Positions 1,870 through 34,457 of a DNA stretch of 35,653 bases are shown here, in pieces. The stretch covers positions 1 to 35,653 of IMG/VR virus record IMGVR_UViG_3300032212_000091, one strand, 5' to 3'. This DNA is from a virus (Duplodnaviria > Caudoviricetes). The notes under the pieces were generated by a model that worked only from the letters and a program-made list of their open reading frames with translations, had not been told where the DNA came from and ran no database searches. Position 1 is the stretch's first letter, and every line of letters begins with the position of its first letter. The translations under genes were made by a program, and so were the position numbers.

Positions 1870-2419
1870 GAAAGATATAAAAGGTTACGAAGGTTTGTAT
1901 TATGCGACATCTTATGGGAATATTGTGTCATACCCAAATAGAGCAAATGGATTGAAACATACAACTCTTAGACCAACAACAAACAATGCAGGGTATTTAC
2001 ACGTCTCATTAAGTAAGAACAACATAAGAAAAACAAAGAATGTTCATAAGTTAATAGCCGATACTCTACTTGAAAACATTGATGGCAAACCTCACATAAA
2101 CCATAAAGATGGGGATAAACTAAATAATGAATTAAGTAATCTTGAGTGGTGTACGCCATCTCAAAACGCACATCATGCTTTTAGATTAAATCTAAGGAAG
2201 CCATCTGAAAAACAAAAGAAAGCTACAACGAAGAACTGGAAGAAGAAAAGAACAGTTAGTGATGAAGTTGTTGTTGCAATAAGAAATGAATATATGCCTC
2301 ATAAAATTACAATGCCAATGTTAGCAGAAAAATATAACATAAGTAGGTCTTTGGTTTGTTCAATAGTTCACGGAAACAGCTATAGAGACTTATTACAAGA
2401 GGTAAAGGATAAACAATGA
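1862..2419 (+). CDS. NUMOD4-HNH homing endonuclease
   Basis: KDIKGYEGLYYATSYG (NUMOD4), INHKDGDKLNNELSNLEWCT..N..H (HNH), C-terminal HTH-like segment. Confidence 0.92.
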   Translation: MIKKDIKGYEGLYYATSYGNIVSYPNRANGLKHTTLRPTTNNAGYLHVSLSKNNIRKTKNVHKLIADTLLENIDGKPHINHKDGDKLNNELSNLEWCTPSQNAHHAFRLNLRKPSEKQKKATTKNWKKKRTVSDEVVVAIRNEYMPHKITMPMLAEKYNISRSLVCSIVHGNSYRDLLQEVKDKQ

Positions 2420-4441: not shown

Positions 4442-4585
4442 ATGCAAGTAAATTTATCAAAGCCAGTTTACGACAAACTAACAAAACTGTCTAAAGAACT
4501 GGATATGCCAAGGGCTCAAGTTGTTAATATGCTAATAAGCGAGTATAGGAGGTTATATGGCGAAACAAAAAACCAAACGTCCTGA
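4442..4585 (+). CDS. ribbon-helix-helix DNA-binding protein (47 aa, not in ORF track)
   Basis: MQVNLSKPVYDKLTKLSKELDMPRAQVVNMLISEY fits the CopG/Arc pattern; AAGG RBS. Confidence 0.7.
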   Translation: MQVNLSKPVYDKLTKLSKELDMPRAQVVNMLISEYRRLYGETKNQTS

Positions 4586-4757: not shown

Positions 4758-4914
4758 AGTAAAAGAGAGCAAGACTAACAAACGTAACAGTAAATTAGGC
4801 GGTATCAGTCTAAGAGGGCGGAGTGCTGATTCAGATAGCGAAAAAGAGGTTTGGAAGCGAATCATGGAACAGCAGAAAAAAGAGAACGAAGAGGAAGCCA
4901 AAAAAAATAAATAG
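4726..4914 (+). CDS. hypothetical charged protein (likely start 4735)
   Basis: AAGGTGG upstream of ATG, tight packing. Confidence 0.55.
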   Translation: MEKMAYNTAYKVKESKTNKRNSKLGGISLRGRSADSDSEKEVWKRIMEQQKKENEEEAKKNK

Positions 4915-4923
4915 GAGGCTACC

Positions 4924-27611: not shown

Positions 27612-28012
27612 TACATGAACTTATTAATGAAATAACAGAAGATGAGGGCTTTATATCTAAGCCATATAAAGACACTCTAGGCGTTTTAACTATTGGCTTC
27701 GGTACAAACATTGAACAAGGCATAACGCGGCCTATGGCTAGGGCTATGTTTGAAACTGATTTAAGAGACAAAATTAAAGAGCTTGAAAACAAAAAGCCGT
27801 TTGTAGTTATGTTATCAGAAGAGAGACAAAAGATCATTTTCAACATGGTCTACCAACTTGGAGTAGGCGGTGTTTTAAAATTTAAAAAGATGTGGCTCGC
27901 ACTAGAAAATGAAGATTACAAAACAGCATCTATTGAAATGCTTGACTCCAAGTGGGCAAAACAGACTCCAAGCAGAGCCAAGCGTTTAGCCTCACGCATG
28001 AAGAGAGGCTAG
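27608..28012 (+). CDS. endolysin, GH24 (T4 lysozyme-like)
   Basis: EG......YKDTLG.LTIGFG (E-x8-D-x5-T triad), MLDSKWAKQTP.RA.RL. Confidence 0.93.
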   Translation: MIHELINEITEDEGFISKPYKDTLGVLTIGFGTNIEQGITRPMARAMFETDLRDKIKELENKKPFVVMLSEERQKIIFNMVYQLGVGGVLKFKKMWLALENEDYKTASIEMLDSKWAKQTPSRAKRLASRMKRG

Positions 28013-28524
28013 GCTACGGCCTCTAAGAAATTATCTACCCATTTATTTTCTCTCTTGTCCATGCGATAAAGAGCCTTTGTCTTAATTATCTTTAAGCCAT
28101 ATACTAAAAAGTCTCTTAGCTTATCTCCTAATACTGGTCTAAAATCTCTAAGCCAGTTAGTCCAAGATCCCTCACTATCTCCATTTAACGCAGATAATAA
28201 CTGGGCTTTTTGAAAGTCATTGAGGTATAAATCTAGGCCATAATAGACATTCTCGAACATCCTATCGGTTATGTACCTTCTTTTTGTATTTGTATCCCCG
28301 TGAGCCTTGGAATTCCAATTGTTTACATCAATTAGAAAATCACCATCAACCATTTTTACATTTTTATTTTTATTGTGGTATTTTTGATGAATAACGCCCA
28401 AAGTAACACCCATATTTACCTCATGGTGAAGCGTTGGTCTTTCCCATTTTGGTTGTATGAGTTTTAATAATTCAGCCTTTTGCGGTAATTTATATAGTTC
28501 TTTTTTATTTATTGGCACTTTCAA
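28009..28524 (-). CDS. hypothetical protein
   Basis: 171-aa ORF, last gene of minus-strand operon. Confidence 0.7.
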   Translation of the reverse strand: MKVPINKKELYKLPQKAELLKLIQPKWERPTLHHEVNMGVTLGVIHQKYHNKNKNVKMVDGDFLIDVNNWNSKAHGDTNTKRRYITDRMFENVYYGLDLYLNDFQKAQLLSALNGDSEGSWTNWLRDFRPVLGDKLRDFLVYGLKIIKTKALYRMDKRENKWVDNFLEAVA

Positions 28525-28894
28525 ACTCTCTTAATATCATTCTCATTTTATACATAACATTTACTCTCATAGTTCCTATTTTAAAAATATCGTGATGAAA
28601 AAATGTTGAGGCCGTAGCGGTACTTTTAAAGTATTCATTATCCCTTAGCCATTTAACAACTACAACTGGGTTTTCTATCTCAAAGTATAAATCTTGCACC
28701 TTGGCTCTAAGCCTATTAGCATACTCGTCGTACTTAATGCAACCTTGCAATAGATCACCTCTTCCTAAGGCTCTTTTGTATCGTGCCTCTTTGGTTTTTG
28801 CTCTTTGAATAGTAGTTAAATAAGTCTTACACTTTCCTAATTTGAATGAATTTTGAGTATTGCCATTTCTTGCAAATTTGCTATCTTTTTTCAT
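28505..28894 (-). CDS. hypothetical protein, paralog of 34015..34407
   Basis: Shared YL.TI...RY...LG.GDL.QG...Y..Y...L....QD.YF. Confidence 0.8.
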   Translation of the reverse strand: MKKDSKFARNGNTQNSFKLGKCKTYLTTIQRAKTKEARYKRALGRGDLLQGCIKYDEYANRLRAKVQDLYFEIENPVVVVKWLRDNEYFKSTATASTFFHHDIFKIGTMRVNVMYKMRMILREFESANK

Positions 28895-29666
28895 AGTTTT
28901 TTATCCTTTCTAGTATCATGTTCATTTTAATTTCACTTATGCCAGTTCCATTTTTGTAAGCAGTTCTTAGTCTTGAAAAAGTAGGGGCATCAAGCCCTAA
29001 AAGTTTACGTGTAAGCGTTTCAGAGTCTATATTATTTCGATCCATAAAGCCTTGTAACTCTCCTAGTGTTTTATCCGCTAAAACTTGGATAGAACTATCT
29101 ACAGTCTTGTTTCGTAAAGGCGTAACAGCTTGTTTCACTTCTTTTTTCTTTGGCTTGGCATCATCCAAAGTAACCCTTTCAGGACGTAACGAAATCATGG
29201 CTTTAATTTGGCCTATCTGAATCAAAACCAACACAAAGCCAAGCAAGAAAATAGTTATCCACTTAGACTTATCAATAGTGAAAGCCTCATCTTTTTGCTT
29301 TCCTATACTCTCTAAACTTGCAAGTGATTTTTGCAAGGTGATAGGCCAGTCCTCTTCTTTTACTTTTTCAATTACAGACATAAGAAGTTTTTCTTTTTTG
29401 TCTACTATCTCTTTTTTAGCCTTAGCCTCGCTGTCATTAATTACCTTATCACCTAAGTGATATAGAGCAAAACAAATAACAAATGCTGAAGTTAAAGGGG
29501 CTAGTACAATATTGCGATTATACCAAAACCACAAGGCAACAACTTCTATTAAGACAGACATTAAAGAGCCAGTAATAGAGTCGCTAAATTTAATCCATGT
29601 GTTAATAGAGTGCCATTGTAATAAAATCATAGATAGTAATACTATCACCCATGCGGTTACTTTCAT
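28881..29666 (-). CDS. multi-TM membrane protein with putative C-terminal HTH
   Basis: About 4 hydrophobic helices; C-terminal ETLTRKLLGLDAPTFSRLR; AGGAGG RBS. Confidence 0.75.
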   Translation of the reverse strand: MKVTAWVIVLLSMILLQWHSINTWIKFSDSITGSLMSVLIEVVALWFWYNRNIVLAPLTSAFVICFALYHLGDKVINDSEAKAKKEIVDKKEKLLMSVIEKVKEEDWPITLQKSLASLESIGKQKDEAFTIDKSKWITIFLLGFVLVLIQIGQIKAMISLRPERVTLDDAKPKKKEVKQAVTPLRNKTVDSSIQVLADKTLGELQGFMDRNNIDSETLTRKLLGLDAPTFSRLRTAYKNGTGISEIKMNMILERIKNYEKR

Positions 29667-29686
29667 TTTTACCTCCTACAGTAAAA

Positions 29687-29830
29687 CTACTTTTGCTTTT
29701 TCTTGTACTCTTCAAGCAGATATTTAACAAGCCCTCTCATGGTGCGGCCACTCTTGACGGCCTCCATTTTAAACTCTTTATGAGTTTCCTTATCTACAAT
29801 AATATAAGCCTCATCTTTGCTCTTAGCCAT
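29687..29830 (-). CDS. ribbon-helix-helix (Arc/CopG-like) regulator (47 aa, not in ORF track)
   Basis: MAKSKDEAYIIVDKETHKEFKMEAVKSGRTMRGLVKYLLEEYKKKQK; AAGGA RBS. Confidence 0.75.
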   Translation of the reverse strand: MAKSKDEAYIIVDKETHKEFKMEAVKSGRTMRGLVKYLLEEYKKKQK

Positions 29831-29858
29831 TCTATTTCCTTTTTTTTGATTTACACTT

Positions 29859-29912
29859 AACATGATAACCTTAATAACCTTTAGGAAACATTAAGCTATT
29901 GTGTATTACAAT
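29859..29912. promoter_or_regulatory. divergent promoter region with operator-like repeat
   Basis: Minus-strand -10 TATCAT; plus-strand TTAAGC...TACAAT; AACCTT-AAT-AACCTTTAG at 29867-29884. Confidence 0.6.
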
Positions 29913-29941
29913 TAGGTATCCAAAAAATTTAGGAGGATATT

Positions 29942-30004
29942 ATGGAGGAAAAAGAAATGACAGCCTCAGAGCTTTTTATGTATTGGTTTGGGGGTAAAAA
30001 GTAA
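29942..30004 (+). CDS. 20-aa peptide (not in ORF track)
   Basis: AGGAGG RBS; MEEKEMTASELFMYWFGGKK; TAATG coupling to next gene. Confidence 0.5.
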   Translation: MEEKEMTASELFMYWFGGKK

Positions 30005-30231
30005 TGGGATATAAAAGACTCGACTATGATGATTTTTATGAAAATAATCTTGATAAAGCTTTAGAGGTTATTTTAGAAAGAAAGATTGATGAGGCCTTGG
30101 AGTTTATTGCTGAAAAATTTGAGGACGAAGTAAATGAGTATATATCAGAGCTTTATGCAGATGTAGAAGCAGATTATGGCGACTACTTACACGATCTCAG
30201 AAGAGATGAAAAATTACTAGGAGATGATTAA
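30004..30231 (+). CDS. small acidic protein
   Basis: 25 of 75 residues are D/E. Confidence 0.7.
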   Translation: MGYKRLDYDDFYENNLDKALEVILERKIDEALEFIAEKFEDEVNEYISELYADVEADYGDYLHDLRRDEKLLGDD

Positions 30232-30842
30232 TGAGTTTATCAAAAATTCAAAGCCGACTAAAGGCAAATAAGTCACAATTTAATAAGTTTGGCAACTACA
30301 ACTATAGGAGCCTAGAAGATATAACAGAGGCTCTTAAGCCTCTTTTAGAAGAGTTTAATGCTCATTTTATTATTAATCACGAGCCGTTTGAGCTTGGAGG
30401 TAGGTTATTTGATAAGGCCACAGCTAAAATTACTTTTGCAGGCGATAAGGATAATAACGATATTTCTCATGAGGCTACAGCTTATGCAGAGATGCTTATA
30501 GGTGCGAAGGGAATGAGCCAGCCGCAACAATCAGGAGCAACGCAAACTTATAGCGGTAAATACGCAACAGCAGGCCTATTCGCTATTGATGACAACAAAG
30601 ATCCTGATAGTTTAGATAATTCAACAAACAACCGACCAACGGGAAGCAAGGCAACAGAGGACGATAAAAAGCGTGCATGGCACGACTTCACAGAACTTTG
30701 CAGTAGCAAGAGTGTAGACCCAGTAAATTTTATAAGCTCTCAGGTAGACATGAGCGACAAAAAAGCAGTACATAACTTAGTTGTGAAGTGGTTAAAAAAC
30801 ACTGACGCACTACTAGGACAGCTAGATAACTTTGAGGGCTAA
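30231..30842 (+). CDS. erf: ERF-family single-strand annealing protein
   Basis: K.QFNKFGNYNYRSLEDI.EALKP, Q.SGA..TY..KY...GLFAIDD.KDPD. Confidence 0.92.
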   Translation: MSLSKIQSRLKANKSQFNKFGNYNYRSLEDITEALKPLLEEFNAHFIINHEPFELGGRLFDKATAKITFAGDKDNNDISHEATAYAEMLIGAKGMSQPQQSGATQTYSGKYATAGLFAIDDNKDPDSLDNSTNNRPTGSKATEDDKKRAWHDFTELCSSKSVDPVNFISSQVDMSDKKAVHNLVVKWLKNTDALLGQLDNFEG

Positions 30843-30844
30843 AT

Positions 30845-31198
30845 ATGGCTCTCAAAACACTCAATCAAAATAATCTTTATCATGCATACGTAAATCAATT
30901 ATACAATCATGGATCTATTAAGATTCAGATAGAAACGAAAGAGTGGGAGGGCGATTTAAAAGAATATGTAACTGGAAGCTATAAGCACTTAAAGAATGTT
31001 GCCGATTTTAAAAGCGTTGCAAGGTATTTGCTAAAAATGATGGATATTGAGTTACCGACACGAAACCCCATAACACAACACAATATGAATAAAAATCATT
31101 TCAATAAAGTAAATAAGGAAGATTTAACCCACCACATTAGCTGGCTAAGAGAGCAACTAATCTACAATAACATAAGGCCATACAATGATTCAGTTTAA
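30845..31198 (+). CDS. hypothetical protein
   Basis: GAGG RBS, operon packing. Confidence 0.65.
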   Translation: MALKTLNQNNLYHAYVNQLYNHGSIKIQIETKEWEGDLKEYVTGSYKHLKNVADFKSVARYLLKMMDIELPTRNPITQHNMNKNHFNKVNKEDLTHHISWLREQLIYNNIRPYNDSV

Positions 31199-31388
31199 TG
31201 AAAATATCACAATGCTAGAAAAGTATAATATAATTCTATCAGAGATATTAAACGAATGCTTGGTGCTTGAACTTAGTATGAGTGAGACAATAAAAGAGTT
31301 AGCAAAGTTTGTGGATCATGGAGATTTTGTTAACCCTTTTGACTTTGTAGAGGCATGGCTCAATAAAGAGCTTTCGCAACGTCAATAA
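31185..31388 (+). CDS. hypothetical protein
   Basis: Overlapping operon ORF. Confidence 0.55.
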   Translation: MIQFNENITMLEKYNIILSEILNECLVLELSMSETIKELAKFVDHGDFVNPFDFVEAWLNKELSQRQ

Positions 31389-31419
31389 GCCGAAAAATTA
31401 ATAGTATGGGAGTACGAAA

Positions 31420-31881
31420 ATGTTCAACAGAAGCGTATTAGTTGGAAACTTAACTAAAGATATAGAGCTCAGATACACAAATGGCGGTACAGCCTTGGCT
31501 AAAACGGCTATTGCAACTACACGTAAGTTTACTTCAAATGGTGAGCGTAAAGAGGAAGTATGTTTTATTGATATTACTTTTTTTGGAAGATCGGCTGAAA
31601 TAGCTAATCAATATCTGAGAAAAGGGAGTAAATGTTTGGTTGAGGGTCGTCTGATGTTTGAACAGTGGACTGATCAATCAGGCCAAAAACGCTCTAAGCA
31701 CTCAGTAACGGTTGAAAATATGGTAATGCTTGACAGCAAGAAAGACTCACAGCAAAACAGCACGAACCAACAGCAACAAAACAACGGACAGTATCAGCCA
31801 CAGGGTGCAGGTCAAGCAAACGCTCAGTATCAACAGCAACAGCAAGAGTTTGATATTGATGAAGATGAAATACCATTTTAG
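31420..31881 (+). CDS. ssb: single-stranded DNA-binding protein
   Basis: OB-fold LVGNLTKDIELRYT, YLRKGS..LVEGRL; Q-rich linker; DEDEIPF tail. Confidence 0.97.
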   Translation: MFNRSVLVGNLTKDIELRYTNGGTALAKTAIATTRKFTSNGERKEEVCFIDITFFGRSAEIANQYLRKGSKCLVEGRLMFEQWTDQSGQKRSKHSVTVENMVMLDSKKDSQQNSTNQQQQNNGQYQPQGAGQANAQYQQQQQEFDIDEDEIPF

Positions 31882-31890
31882 GAGGATATT

Positions 31891-32019
31891 GTGATTTTAT
31901 GGGGAGCCTTAGGGATAGCGGTTTGCATTGCGGTATTTATCACAAAAGATAAAAAAACAGAGATCGAGGGATTGGCTCTTTTGATTCTTATAGACATTTT
32001 TAGTAAAATAGGAGTTTAA
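31891..32019 (+). CDS. small 2-TM peptide (42 aa, not in ORF track)
   Basis: AGGAGG RBS, GTG start. Confidence 0.55.
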   Translation: MILWGALGIAVCIAVFITKDKKTEIEGLALLILIDIFSKIGV

Positions 32020-32023
32020 GGCT

Positions 32024-32242
32024 ATGATTTTATGCGACAACACAAAATGTCACATGAGAGAAATTTGTGGCAGAGCAAATCTCATAACTAACGGCAAAAC
32101 AGAGATACGACATTTTGAGCCTTTAGGTGCTAGTTGCGATCATTTTATAGAGCATCACGACCACAATTATTCAAAAGATGAAATGGACGCTATGCGGCAT
32201 CAAATAGGGGCATACGATAAAAAGACAAAATCTTTATTTTAA
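32024..32242 (+). CDS. small Cys-containing phage protein
   Basis: C....C.....C.R...C..F pattern; AGGAG RBS. Confidence 0.65.
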   Translation: MILCDNTKCHMREICGRANLITNGKTEIRHFEPLGASCDHFIEHHDHNYSKDEMDAMRHQIGAYDKKTKSLF

Positions 32243-32273
32243 ACCTTGACAACCTTTAGTAATATGCTATAAT
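32242..32273 (+). promoter_or_regulatory. strong sigma70 promoter overlapped by operator-like repeat
   Basis: TTGACA-N16-TATAAT with TG; AACCTT-GAC-AACCTTTAG overlaps the -35. Confidence 0.8.
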
Positions 32274-32281
32274 TGTATCAC

Positions 32282-32403
32282 GGCTTATAGCTACGTACCT
32301 TTTCAGCGTATACTAGAGTCTAGTTGATACCTCCTAAGTATGAAAAAAGTTCCTACCTACCTAACCCATGCGGTAGGTATTGGAATAGATCATGCTATAA
32401 GTT
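32282..32403 (+). ncRNA. candidate multi-branched antisense sRNA
   Basis: Begins about 8 nt after TATAAT; closing stem GGCTTATAGC/GCTATAAGTT around four hairpins; two loops complementary to the 5' end of the 28881..29666 mRNA. Confidence 0.7.
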
Positions 32404-32408
32404 AATAT

Positions 32409-32513
32409 ACAAGTTTTATTAATTGCAAGTGAGTTTGGTCGCTTCCTACTTGCAATTAATAAGGTTTGTTTATAACATATAATCAGATAAAAGGAAGCGA
32501 CCAACCTCCTTTA
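32409..32513 (+). promoter_or_regulatory. long hairpin whose loop is complementary to a downstream box (pseudoknot/attenuator)
   Basis: 15-bp perfect stem 32416-30/32448-62; 17-nt loop complementary (16/17) to 32492-32508. Confidence 0.75.
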
Positions 32514-32561
32514 GCGACTATCACCCTTAAATTTTATTATTGTTGGCGAAAGAACCGTAAA

Positions 32562-32729
32562 ATGTCAAAGTTAAGCAAAAAAAGTAAGGTACTGGATAGT
32601 ATTTTGACTTCATACAAAAATAAAGATATTAAAGGCCTTACTTTAATTAGTGATTTGCACCCTAATTATAAACCTACTGCAACTAAATATATTCTAAGAT
32701 TAGAAAAGAGAAATCATGGCAAAGCGTAG
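32562..32729 (+). CDS. small basic protein upstream of replication initiator
   Basis: ATG 32562, overlaps next gene; weak RBS. Confidence 0.5.
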   Translation: MSKLSKKSKVLDSILTSYKNKDIKGLTLISDLHPNYKPTATKYILRLEKRNHGKA

Positions 32730-33486
32730 AATGTTTGCAAAAACGATTATAGACAGCGATAGTTTTCTCGATATGAGTTTATCGACACAGGCTCTTTATT
32801 TTCATTTATCCATGAGAGCAGATGATGAAGGGTTCATTAATAACCCCCGTAAAATATCACGCATGATAGGCTCAAATGAAGATGAGTTAAAGGTGCTTGT
32901 AGCTAAGAAATTTATACTCATTTTTGATAGCGGGGTGATAGTGATTAAGCATTGGAAAATCCATAATTTAATTAGAGCAGATAGAATCTGCGAAACTGTT
33001 TACTTAGATGAGCGTGACCAAGTAGTGACCAATGAAAATGAGTCCTACAGTATGCTACAAGAGGGTTGCAGTCAAATGTCAACCACTTGTCAACCAAATG
33101 TCCGCATAGGTAAGGATAGTATAGGTAAGGATAGTATAGGAGAGGTTAGTAGAGGTAAGGATAGGTTAGTAGAGACTAATGAAGCATTTGAGCAATTTTG
33201 GAAAACATACCCTAAGAAAAAATCTAAGCAAATCGCTAAAAAAGCTTTTGAAAAGCATTTTAAATCTATACCGCCACTAGATTATTTGATAAGCCATCTT
33301 GAAATGATGAAATTAACTAAGGATTGGAAAAAAGAAAACGGACAATATATTCCTTACCCTGCTACATGGCTAAATGCTCACGGTTGGAATGATGAAGTAA
33401 ATCTATCAGATGCAGAGAAGGCCAAAGCGATAATAGACAATAGCGACATGAGCTATAAAGATATTTTAAAAGCAAAAGGATATTAA
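32716..33486 (+). CDS. phage replisome organizer / replication initiator
   Basis: MAKRRMF.K.IIDSD.FLDM..S.QALYFHL.M.ADDEGF; C-terminal FEQFW..YPKK...YIPYPATWLN...W.DE. Confidence 0.9.
   Translation: MAKRRMFAKTIIDSDSFLDMSLSTQALYFHLSMRADDEGFINNPRKISRMIGSNEDELKVLVAKKFILIFDSGVIVIKHWKIHNLIRADRICETVYLDERDQVVTNENESYSMLQEGCSQMSTTCQPNVRIGKDSIGKDSIGEVSRGKDRLVETNEAFEQFWKTYPKKKSKQIAKKAFEKHFKSIPPLDYLISHLEMMKLTKDWKKENGQYIPYPATWLNAHGWNDEVNLSDAEKAKAIIDNSDMSYKDILKAKGY
33071..33175 (+). repeat. iteron-like repeats, putative replication origin
   Basis: TGTCAACCA x2, then 15-bp ATAGGTAAGGATAGT x2 plus 2 degenerate copies, in the linker of the initiator gene. Confidence 0.7.
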
Positions 33487-33487
33487 A

Positions 33488-34018
33488 ATGAATGATCTAA
33501 TCGAAGCAATAAGAATTAAACTAAACATTGCAGATAATATTTTTATCAATGGTGAGATAGAAAGTTATTTAGAAGATATTGCACCAGTTGACTATCAAGA
33601 TTTCTTCAAAGAGTTAAGCGGCGATCAATTTGCATATAAACAAGGCATGGACAGAGTAGCTATTGTAAGTGAGTCATTTAAAGAGCGTAACATAGCCAAA
33701 ATAAGCAAAACTGTTCCATGTAAAGCCAAAGACTTACACGACAGACTTTTTCGTCTTAAAGAGCATCTAGGAGATGAATACAAAGATAAAGACTTTTCAT
33801 GTATAAAGTTTGGTGATGGCAGAATGTTTTCTGATATTGAAATAATCATTTTAGGTAATTTAAATTTAGACCTAATAATGGGTAAGATTTTAAGCCCTTA
33901 TGATACAGACCTTATAGTAAACATGATTAAAGATGCTATGGTTAAATACAATCAAGCCAAAGCAGAGGGTTTAGCGGTATCACTGAACGATAAAAAGCTA
34001 TTAAGTAATAAATCATGA
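33488..34018 (+). CDS. hypothetical protein (helicase-loader position)
   Basis: Follows initiator; AAGGA RBS; no P-loop seen. Confidence 0.65.
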   Translation: MNDLIEAIRIKLNIADNIFINGEIESYLEDIAPVDYQDFFKELSGDQFAYKQGMDRVAIVSESFKERNIAKISKTVPCKAKDLHDRLFRLKEHLGDEYKDKDFSCIKFGDGRMFSDIEIIILGNLNLDLIMGKILSPYDTDLIVNMIKDAMVKYNQAKAEGLAVSLNDKKLLSNKS

Positions 34019-34407
34019 GAGGCACAAGAGAAGCACGAACAAATGGCTACAGCGTTTATTCTATAGCTATAGGCAAACATCATAGCTACTTATCAACCAT
34101 AGCCGCCTCACGTTCTTTGAGATACCGCTACATGATGGTACTAGGCAAAGGAGATCTTATTCAAGGCCACATGAACTATGAGAGATACTCCGATCACTTA
34201 AAAATAGAACTGCAAGATATTTACTTCAAAGGCTCAGATATTAAGTTTTACAACTTCTTAGTTGATAATGGCTTCTTTACTACTAGAAACTCAGCCCTAA
34301 GATTTACAGATGATAATATCTTTAGCACTGAGAAAGTATTATCGGTAACTACGATGAAGAAAGCACGAGCGATTTTAAAGAAGCATAAAGAGATAAAGGA
34401 AAACTAA
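34015..34407 (+). CDS. hypothetical protein, paralog of 28505..28894
   Basis: Full-length similarity by eye. Confidence 0.8.
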   Translation: MRGTREARTNGYSVYSIAIGKHHSYLSTIAASRSLRYRYMMVLGKGDLIQGHMNYERYSDHLKIELQDIYFKGSDIKFYNFLVDNGFFTTRNSALRFTDDNIFSTEKVLSVTTMKKARAILKKHKEIKEN

Positions 34408-34429
34408 AGGTTTTAAAGGTTACAATGTT
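34404..34429 (+). promoter_or_regulatory. promoter/operator of pentapeptide operon
   Basis: CTAAAGGTT-TTA-AAGGTTACAAT; 22/26 identical to the minus strand at 29859-29884. Confidence 0.6.
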
Positions 34430-34457
34430 CTTATCAATTAACTGTAGGAGGTTTGAG

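Follow-up and report, generated by a model that had tools for sequence, protein, structure and literature searches.

Judging from sequence comparison, the locus at positions 32280–32403 probably encodes a small RNA (sRNA) that represses several early genes of a phage in trans by pairing with their ribosome-binding sites (RBS). A promoter, a conserved fold and a seed are present at the locus, and the RBS motif complementary to the seed is limited to 2–6 starts per phage at equivalent positions. The unit is likely 110–125 nt long, with the order hairpin–seed–hairpin, and the 261-aa membrane gene that the preliminary description had proposed as its target is likely one target of several.

The window, i.e., the whole stretch of DNA that was analyzed, is a complete 35.7-kb virus record (35,653 nt, completeness as rated) encoding terminase, portal, capsid, tail, endolysin, Erf, SSB and a DnaD-like initiator. 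Its SSB is nearest to proteins of Campylobacterota (Sulfurovum, Sulfurimonas), and the host is presumably of this phylum, the SSB protein similarity being the sole basis of this assignment. A tyrosine integrase was found in none of five phages (the window and four relatives), a serine recombinase was not found in the window, and no CI-like or partition gene was found among the ORFs scanned (39 + 28). A serine-recombinase match in the relative G003 was set aside, as it falls within a 312-aa helicase-like ORF. In one DNA run, possibly the source of the record, a single contig spans 29500–32800 without differences from the window. Two genes of 129–130 aa at 28505–28894 (minus strand) and 34015–34407 (plus strand) look paralogous in that both match one region of the relative G001, and their DNA cross-matches in the relative G002.

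The promoter (32246–32273, plus strand) is of the sigma-70 type, TTGACA-16-TATAAT with a TG extension. As the preliminary description had it, a consensus promoter (12/12) thus precedes ∼120 nt of structured sequence, and it is the sole 12/12 site among 20 promoter-like matches in 27900–33000 (18.7 expected from shuffles). Spacing and alignment place the start of the predicted RNA (32280–32403, plus strand) at about 32280, while its 3′ end is uncertain and lies at ∼32390, after the second hairpin, or at 32403 if a closing stem forms. Along the plus strand follow a 5′ hairpin (H1, 32282–32320; core 32288–32315 with the pairs TAG/CTA and TACG/CGTA), the anti-RBS seed (32325–32340; core TACCTCCTA at 32328–36), a predicted 3′ hairpin (H2, 32349–32386; core stem 32354–61/32372–79, loop 32362–71) and the 3′ arm of the closing stem (32394–32403), which pairs with 32282–91. 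The fold of 32282–32403 has a predicted energy of −33.8 kcal/mol (z −2.95), equaled by 0 of 200 shuffles. All helices proposed in the preliminary description do pair, and the closed fold that they form reaches −31.0 kcal/mol against a minimum free energy of −34.4. Since this closed fold is more stable in the window than the two-hairpin fold conserved among relatives (−22.5 kcal/mol), the window lineage may fold differently. The predicted ensemble leaves little of the 9-mer's 5′ half unpaired (unpaired probability 0.05–0.28), the next CCT being open (0.96–0.99); the seed is predicted to be partly paired in G002 as well, and opening the 12-nt seed costs 2.6 kcal/mol in the window.

Homologous units were identified in three relatives, of which G001 (70%) and G002 (50%) were found via the 261-aa protein and G003 via the capsid protein. 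In each of them the unit lies downstream of ssb and has the same order of promoter, 5′ hairpin, A(A/C)CUCCUA seed and 3′ hairpin, with compensatory changes, which also occur in H1. Invariant in the four-phage alignment are the TATAAT box, a 5′ A-x-GG-x-T start and the A(A/C)CTCCTA of the seed, while the RNAalifold consensus consists of H1, an unpaired seed and H2, and both partners have changed in 7 of its 17 pairs. In this consensus 90.5% of the cells are paired, a value reached by 1 of 500 shuffles and compared with 27–55% in slid controls, in a test in which four related sequences can score so without structure; the H2 of G001 and the basal helix of the window are out of register in the alignment. 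The promoter-driven structured unit that was originally described is thus conserved, although the closing stem is specific to the window and, like the ACTAG hairpin, absent from the consensus, which is that of two hairpins flanking the seed. In the relatives and in a second group of phages described below, the unit's 3′ hairpin has a T-rich run behind it; on the plus strand of the window there is no T-rich run 3′ of H2 and no intrinsic-terminator-like site at the RNA end. The locus shows two features expected of a trans-encoded sRNA: its own promoter together with a conserved structure that has no conserved ORF over it (none was seen in the window or the relatives), and a seed that is itself conserved and to which mRNAs of distant genes are complementary over short, imperfect stretches.

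Membership of this sRNA comprises four phages, all of them uncultured. The sRNA model gave no match in three further phages (G004–G006), nor was it found in 5 and then 151 Campylobacterota genomes (22–150 candidates scored per genome, no positive control); a weak match occurred in L100 (E 0.31). At the gathering score, the Infernal/Rfam check yielded no family for the window, for L007 and L008 or for seven additional loci, and at E ≤ 10 the region 32100–32750 gave eight weak matches, regarded as noise, among which C4 did not appear. By blastn, the locus had no match in cultured phages, and no paper on it was found in the literature covered, in which subscription papers were thinly represented and supplements excluded. 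Two pattern searches gave candidates that were discarded: both boxes of the preliminary description, searched in viral contigs, matched four loci of one unrelated sequence, judged to be chance, and the promoter–seed pattern gave three matches, two already known and one judged to be chance.

In the four phages AAGGAG is the RBS of ordinary starts, and TAGGRGG marks a small class (in the window 6 of 28 AGGRG starts, 3/16 in G001, 2/19 in G002 and 3/12 in G003). TAGGAGG was found at none of 371 host-like starts in 783 kb surrounding ssb, for the most part from Campylobacterota; pairing of the seeds comes to −14 kcal/mol at only 0–3 of these 371, and the T before AGGAGG is not explained by the Campylobacter 16S tail. 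Sites of this class occupy equivalent positions in the four phages, i.e., behind a ribbon-helix-helix (RHH)-like gene, in front of the first ORF of the early region and in front of the gene that comes first after the replication block. The site after the RHH-like gene is present whatever comes next (a gene of 261, 260, 64 or 66 aa), and one of the sites before the first ORF in the divergent recombination operon has the form TAGGAGT, as has one in G002.

Four starts of the window stand out as predicted targets. The RBS ACTGTAGGAGGTA (29670–29682, minus strand) directly follows the RHH-like gene and precedes the 261-aa gene (−16.9 kcal/mol, rank 2/131). The RBS of a 20-aa first ORF (29942–30004) of the rightward recombination operon (29928–29941, plus strand) pairs best (−17.2, rank 1/131); the RBS ACTGTAGGAGGTT (34441–34457, plus strand) belongs to the first gene after the replication block, which encodes a pentapeptide-repeat protein (ATG 34458; −14.7, rank 5/131); and an RBS identical to that of the 20-aa ORF lies before a 42-aa hydrophobic ORF (31877–31890, plus strand; GTG 31891; −14.4, rank 6). 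Weaker candidates are the TAGGAGG sites of a 66-aa ORF (4543–4556, plus strand; ATG 4557; −12.9, rank 9) and an 81-aa ORF (4910–4923, plus strand; ATG 4924; −12.3), a similar 81-aa ORF of G001 holding rank 1/109 there. Among the SD-bearing starts, the three equivalent ones rank 1, 2 and 5 of 131 in the window, 2, 3 and 4 of 109 in G001, 1, 2 and 7–8 of 99 in G002 and 1, 2 and 3 of 86 in G003, bearing in mind that an anti-SD seed favors any strong GGAGG site. Summed over the three target classes, pairing within the own genome is best in 4/4 rows and ranks first among 24 assignments, which is the smallest value that four genomes allow, for classes chosen after the rankings had been seen; in the 12 individual comparisons, the seed of the same genome comes out best or equal best only 6 times. 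The preliminary description had expected the region 29647–29678 to rank first among all starts. With the seed alone, the 261-aa start comes second of 131 SD-bearing starts, behind the leader ORF at 29942, and with a longer seed it is fourth of all 1,122 starts. The flank of the window seed fits least, the base before TAGG being mismatched in the direct register at 4 of 6 targets. Outside the window, A is constant in the seed at the place where 13 of 19 targets carry G, an asymmetry that U–G wobble permits.

The 20-aa ORF has a stop that overlaps the next start. First ORFs of 20–22 aa with a KEMTASELFMY core overlap the next gene in three of the four phages (window 29942–30004; L016 14812, minus strand; L015 4398), and this conserved ORF likely serves as a coupling leader. 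In the phage G006, which shares the gene order and encodes a homolog (272 aa) of the 261-aa protein, an AAGGAG site follows the RHH-like gene, the sRNA model finds no match, and TAGGRGG is present at none of six starts in the 19 of 44 kb examined. Two RTAGGAGG copies elsewhere in G006 look intragenic by eye.

A search with the RBS motif only returned 82 loci, three of which were G001 and G003 again; the other 79 were considered. Sixteen of them (9 distinct, mutually related sequences) hold an inverted spare copy of the motif within a hairpin–seed–terminator unit of ∼60 nt, which is made up of a −10-like box, a hairpin, A(A/C)CTCCTATGG and a GC-rich terminator and adjoins an ssb-like gene of a Sak/exonuclease module. 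With the seeds of this second group, motif-bearing starts come out on top (L027, 4 of the top 4/40; L064, 3/37; L081, 3/17; L087, 4/31). In the flanks all 36 positions pair, 17 of them by G–U (9 targets, 3 seeds; the search pattern had fixed 3 of the 9 scored targets), and such wobble-permitted departures are expected of RNA pairing and not of a DNA site. The units of the second group appear to follow the same design as the window sRNA, a likeness that lies in the layout, as the sRNA model scores them at E 0.19–0.27 only. Those scanned had no Rfam match. In L027 (2931–3019, minus strand) and the 15 other loci, the units converge with the ssb-like gene, and they lie upstream of an HTH gene. By blastn, a unit of this group matched only terminators after ssb. 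In a further phage, G160, five GTAGGAGG ribosome sites occur on both strands of an 11-kb fragment (L103, 6372–8321). No spare inverted copy was seen in this fragment of a 30%-complete record, and the partner RNA may sit outside it. Finally, a phage of 31% GC with many TAGGAG starts has a seed-like ACCTCCTA followed by a terminator-like hairpin (L080 13589, plus strand), possibly another independent case.

The reading that we consider unlikely, yet the best of the alternatives, is that of the preliminary description, in which a two-box RNA of the c4/CI or antitoxin type is dedicated to the 261-aa membrane gene through two loop contacts. This gene (28881–29666, minus strand) encodes a protein with a hydrophobic N-terminal half and, from weak leads, a possible C-terminal HTH. 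Seventy relatives were found at E ≤ 0.001, mostly of 250–300 aa, with no Pfam or PHROG family; a metagenome scan recovered only a window-identical record and two known phages, and a genome scan none. Both matches exist as described: TACCTCCTA at 32328–36 and 29670–78 and ACCCATGCGGT at 32364–74 and 29647–57 each occur exactly twice in the window, counting both strands, and the target boxes lie 12 nt apart in the order given. The 11-mer is the most GC-rich of 11 exact 11-nt matches that 32230–32560 has elsewhere in the window, and 8 of its 11 bases lie inside the open H2 loop, 14 nt from the SD helix, so that an 8-nt loop contact of −12.9 kcal/mol would cost 0.2 kcal/mol to open, compared with 7.9 for all 11 bases. 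An 11-nt complement to positions +1 to +60 of the 261-aa gene arose in 412 of 200,000 shuffles, and of the six window targets none but the 261-aa start has a second box of >8 nt; in G001, the H1 loop matches ATGAAAG (7 nt) at two of four targets. However, a complement to any of the six candidate targets arose in 1,905 of 200,000 shuffles, and arithmetic from these shuffles puts chance at ∼1% over six targets and ∼4% over four phages, the 11-mer being window-specific with a chance of 0.2–1%. No second box of >8 nt was found at +1 to +60 of 11 candidate starts in the three relatives, the 70%-identical ortholog of G001 included, and the H2 loop differs in sequence in every one of the four phages. 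The argument had been placed on the 11-mer, with the 9-mer considered unspecific alone; as no second box of >8 nt was found in the relatives and the H2 loop is variable, the relation is reversed, and the conserved functional part of the RNA is the 9-mer seed, present in 4/4 phages. Codons 4–7 of the 261-aa gene (29647–29657, minus strand), complementary to the H2 loop, may give a second, loop-based contact on its mRNA in the window phage only. A further match, ACTATCACCC (32517–26 to 29641–50), was dropped because ATCACCC also ends the G006 copy of the paired-hairpin element described below.

RNA and gene also part company. G003 has the sRNA and no 261-aa homolog in its early region, while G004–G006 have the homolog and no sRNA-model match, the homolog lying inside other operons in G004 and G005. 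In G002, the 274-aa homolog is found one gene further down, without an SD of its own, where it overlaps the stop of the targeted 64-aa gene. Trans action at the RBS of the 261-aa gene therefore still stands as a prediction, whereas that of a dedicated target does not.

Somewhat less likely still is that a protein recognizes the motif in DNA or RNA (as an operator, a stoperator or the site of a translational regulator), with the copy at the sRNA locus merely an inverted site. The motif does recur at regulatory positions, the G160 fragment contains five sites without an inverted copy, and for a comparable repeat of mycobacteriophages a protein ligand was left open in the account of Pope et al. 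(PMC3203893). Against this, the inverted copy always lies between a −10 box with its hairpin and a second hairpin, and the A-for-G wobble asymmetry outside the window and the 0 mismatches in the 36 flank positions of the second group speak for RNA pairing. A better operator candidate is the direct repeat AACCTT-N3-AACCTT, found four times in the window against 0.38 expected. One copy (32242–32256, plus strand) overlaps the −35 box of the sRNA promoter; the others lie in the divergent early promoter region (29867–29881, plus strand), upstream of the predicted target at 34441–34457 (34407–34421, minus strand) and, as a perfect copy, inside the start of an HNH gene (1881–1895, minus strand). G002 has two copies, G003 three, and none was found in G001. 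The 46-aa RHH-like gene (29687–29827, minus strand), with Pfam RHH matches below the cut-off, is in the same place in all four phages, and its product is likely a transcriptional repressor that binds these repeats.

We find it just as improbable that the RNA is mainly a 5′ leader of the replication operon acting in cis, as an attenuator or switch, with a secondary anti-SD match. Such a leader would include a paired-hairpin element (32409–32512, plus strand) separate from the sRNA, in which a long hairpin (32409–31/32447–69) carries a loop (32435–47) complementary to 32492–504. The element follows the sRNA in all four phages, the window lacks a terminator after H2, the 5′ side of H2 in G001 can pair into the element, and P4 CI is described as being cut from such a leader (PMC4825925). 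Against this, the element also occurs without the sRNA, in G006 and as a second copy in G003, the gene downstream varies among phages, the exact-match list of the window contains no seed complement downstream in the same transcript, and in the second group each unit is closed by a clean terminator and oriented away from the adjacent gene. By its predicted pairing the element looks like a kissing-loop or pseudoknot switch; it has no Rfam match. Counting that of the window, such elements of different sequence were seen in six places of five phages (the others being L007 5008–5165, minus strand; L008 3765–3915, minus strand; L015 6968–7108 and 8225–8378; L113 3234–3385, minus strand), with loop complements of 8–13 bp, a downstream segment that is often itself a hairpin loop, and a position 40–60 nt before a start codon, that of a replication initiator in three cases. 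On the minus strand, six T follow H2 (32340–32390) and a promoter-like site lies at 32568–32539, so that an antisense RNA of ∼180 nt over the element is possible; relatives show no evident T run of this kind.

Least probable is that these features came together by chance, with a strong promoter and ordinary hairpins in a phage that has strong SDs at highly expressed genes, and no regulatory pairing. Although CCUCC complements any strong SD and the sample is small, the seed is invariant amid diverged flanks in four phages with covarying stems, the motif is absent from 371 host-like starts, motif and RNA are jointly absent in G006, and the same design is found in a second phage group.

For the favored reading of a multi-target anti-RBS repressor, we infer transcription, pairing, repression and timing from the sequences. 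Host RNA polymerase would make the RNA from its perfect sigma-70 promoter soon after infection, and as the RNA accumulates, its seed would form 11–17 bp with the TAGGAGG sites and block binding of the 30S subunit. In several cases the targeted ORF is a short one or the first of its operon, with a stop codon overlapping the start of the following gene, so that through the loss of translational coupling the repression would reach genes further downstream. A second layer of this brake would come from the RHH-like protein, which probably represses these units as well, by way of the AACCTT repeats. Since no integrase was found, delayed shut-off or damping of early genes is the more probable role compared with prophage immunity; a non-integrated prophage has, however, been reported in Sulfurimonas (PMC11290706). 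If this reading is true, one RNA acting on a private RBS class across operons would constitute a compact RNA-based regulon in phages without a detected integrase or CI-type repressor, and a seed for a phage RBS class absent from 371 host-like starts would be a natural model for orthogonal translational control.

Among known systems, type I antitoxins act on small toxins of under about 60 aa. The proposed kinship with them does not hold, as the target has 261 aa in a family of mostly 250–300 aa and RNA and gene do not always co-occur (G003; G004–G006). RsaE/RoxS and 6C are host-encoded C-rich multi-target anti-SD sRNAs aimed at host genes. The window RNA resembles them in that a single short seed rich in C and U would cover the SDs of numerous mRNAs, but here the phage supplies both the seed and the matching private RBS, and Rfam gives no match. 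In phage P22, Arc and Mnt are RHH proteins, and the cis-encoded Sar acts atop protein repressors. Sar is fully complementary to one target, whereas the window sRNA would act in trans on several targets. Sar is described as blocking translation initiation, and the phage regulatory RNAs treated in the same review, as far as it was available, act on one phage gene or on host genes (PMC12197685).

In the C4 RNA of P1 and P7, one loop partly occludes the RBS and a second loop gives specificity, according to the descriptions available (PMC5320573, PMC8198154). C4 and the window RNA share a phage-encoded structured RNA ahead of an operon, trans action on an RBS, predicted in the case of the window RNA, and a short first ORF (icd in P1/P7) as part of the control. 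However, C4 is depicted in these sources as a three-stem RNA cut by RNase P that acts on its own operon, while the window consensus is two hairpins with an open seed and the predicted targets are spread over 3–6 units. The four phages do not share three stem-loops closed by a conserved P1 stem, a closed multi-loop fold being predicted for the window, and with no Rfam C4 match, no closing stem in the consensus and a second box in the window only, we do not assign the RNA to C4. P4 CI, cut from a leader upstream of the replication genes, pairs with the flanking seqA and seqC in the same transcript, which leads to termination, in the sections of the work covered (PMC4825925). It is similar in providing RNA-only control of phage genes from a leader before replication genes, but the complement of the window seed is an RBS class in other transcripts, and the exact-match list of 32230–32560 has no seqA/seqC-type sites near the seed or the H2 loop, so that the suggested likeness to CI is not borne out.

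The closest parallel to the TAGGAGG class are the SAS/ESAS repeats of Cluster K mycobacteriophages, a 13-bp motif in 11–19 copies (PMC3203893, PMC11373665). With these, and with Microbacterium cluster EF (PMC7302621), as these sources present them, the window class has in common an RBS repeat that is private and over-conserved and lies at non-structural genes, some copies having a promoter or operator repeat upstream; like SAS, it exceeds the 16S complement and is rare in the host, as inferred from SSB only. SAS belong to temperate actinophages, while the window motif is shorter, different and present in 2–6 copies, and SAS and the window RNA were compared in sequence at the shared TAGGAG core only. 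In four K1 phages, one SAS was noted in opposite orientation and without a gene by Pope et al. in 2011, who left open an RNA or protein ligand (PMC3203893); the role of SAS was still given as unknown in a 2024 account (PMC11373665). No RNA partner of SAS was found proposed in the literature covered, which included few subscription papers and excluded the supplements with SAS site tables. In TM4 and Pixie, whose right halves were examined, no inverted SAS copy was seen there, and this speaks against a universal rule. In Adephagia, the lone inverted SAS (58682–58694) forms the 10-nt loop of a predicted −33.7 kcal/mol hairpin (L197 28660–28730 = 58659–58729), in a gap that gave Rfam noise only. 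This gap between genes 92 and 93 is where late transcription is reported to start (PMC11373665). We offer only tentatively, as a doubtful generalization, that unrelated phages have repeatedly built RNA-addressed regulons, in which selected genes bear a private RBS barcode foreign to the host, read by one short RNA that replaces a protein repressor at the level of translation, and that the SAS of K1 phages may be such barcodes, read by the Adephagia loop. It would provide a testable explanation for the SAS repeats, since Adephagia is a cultured phage with published RNA-seq and with the inverted copy in a predicted hairpin loop.
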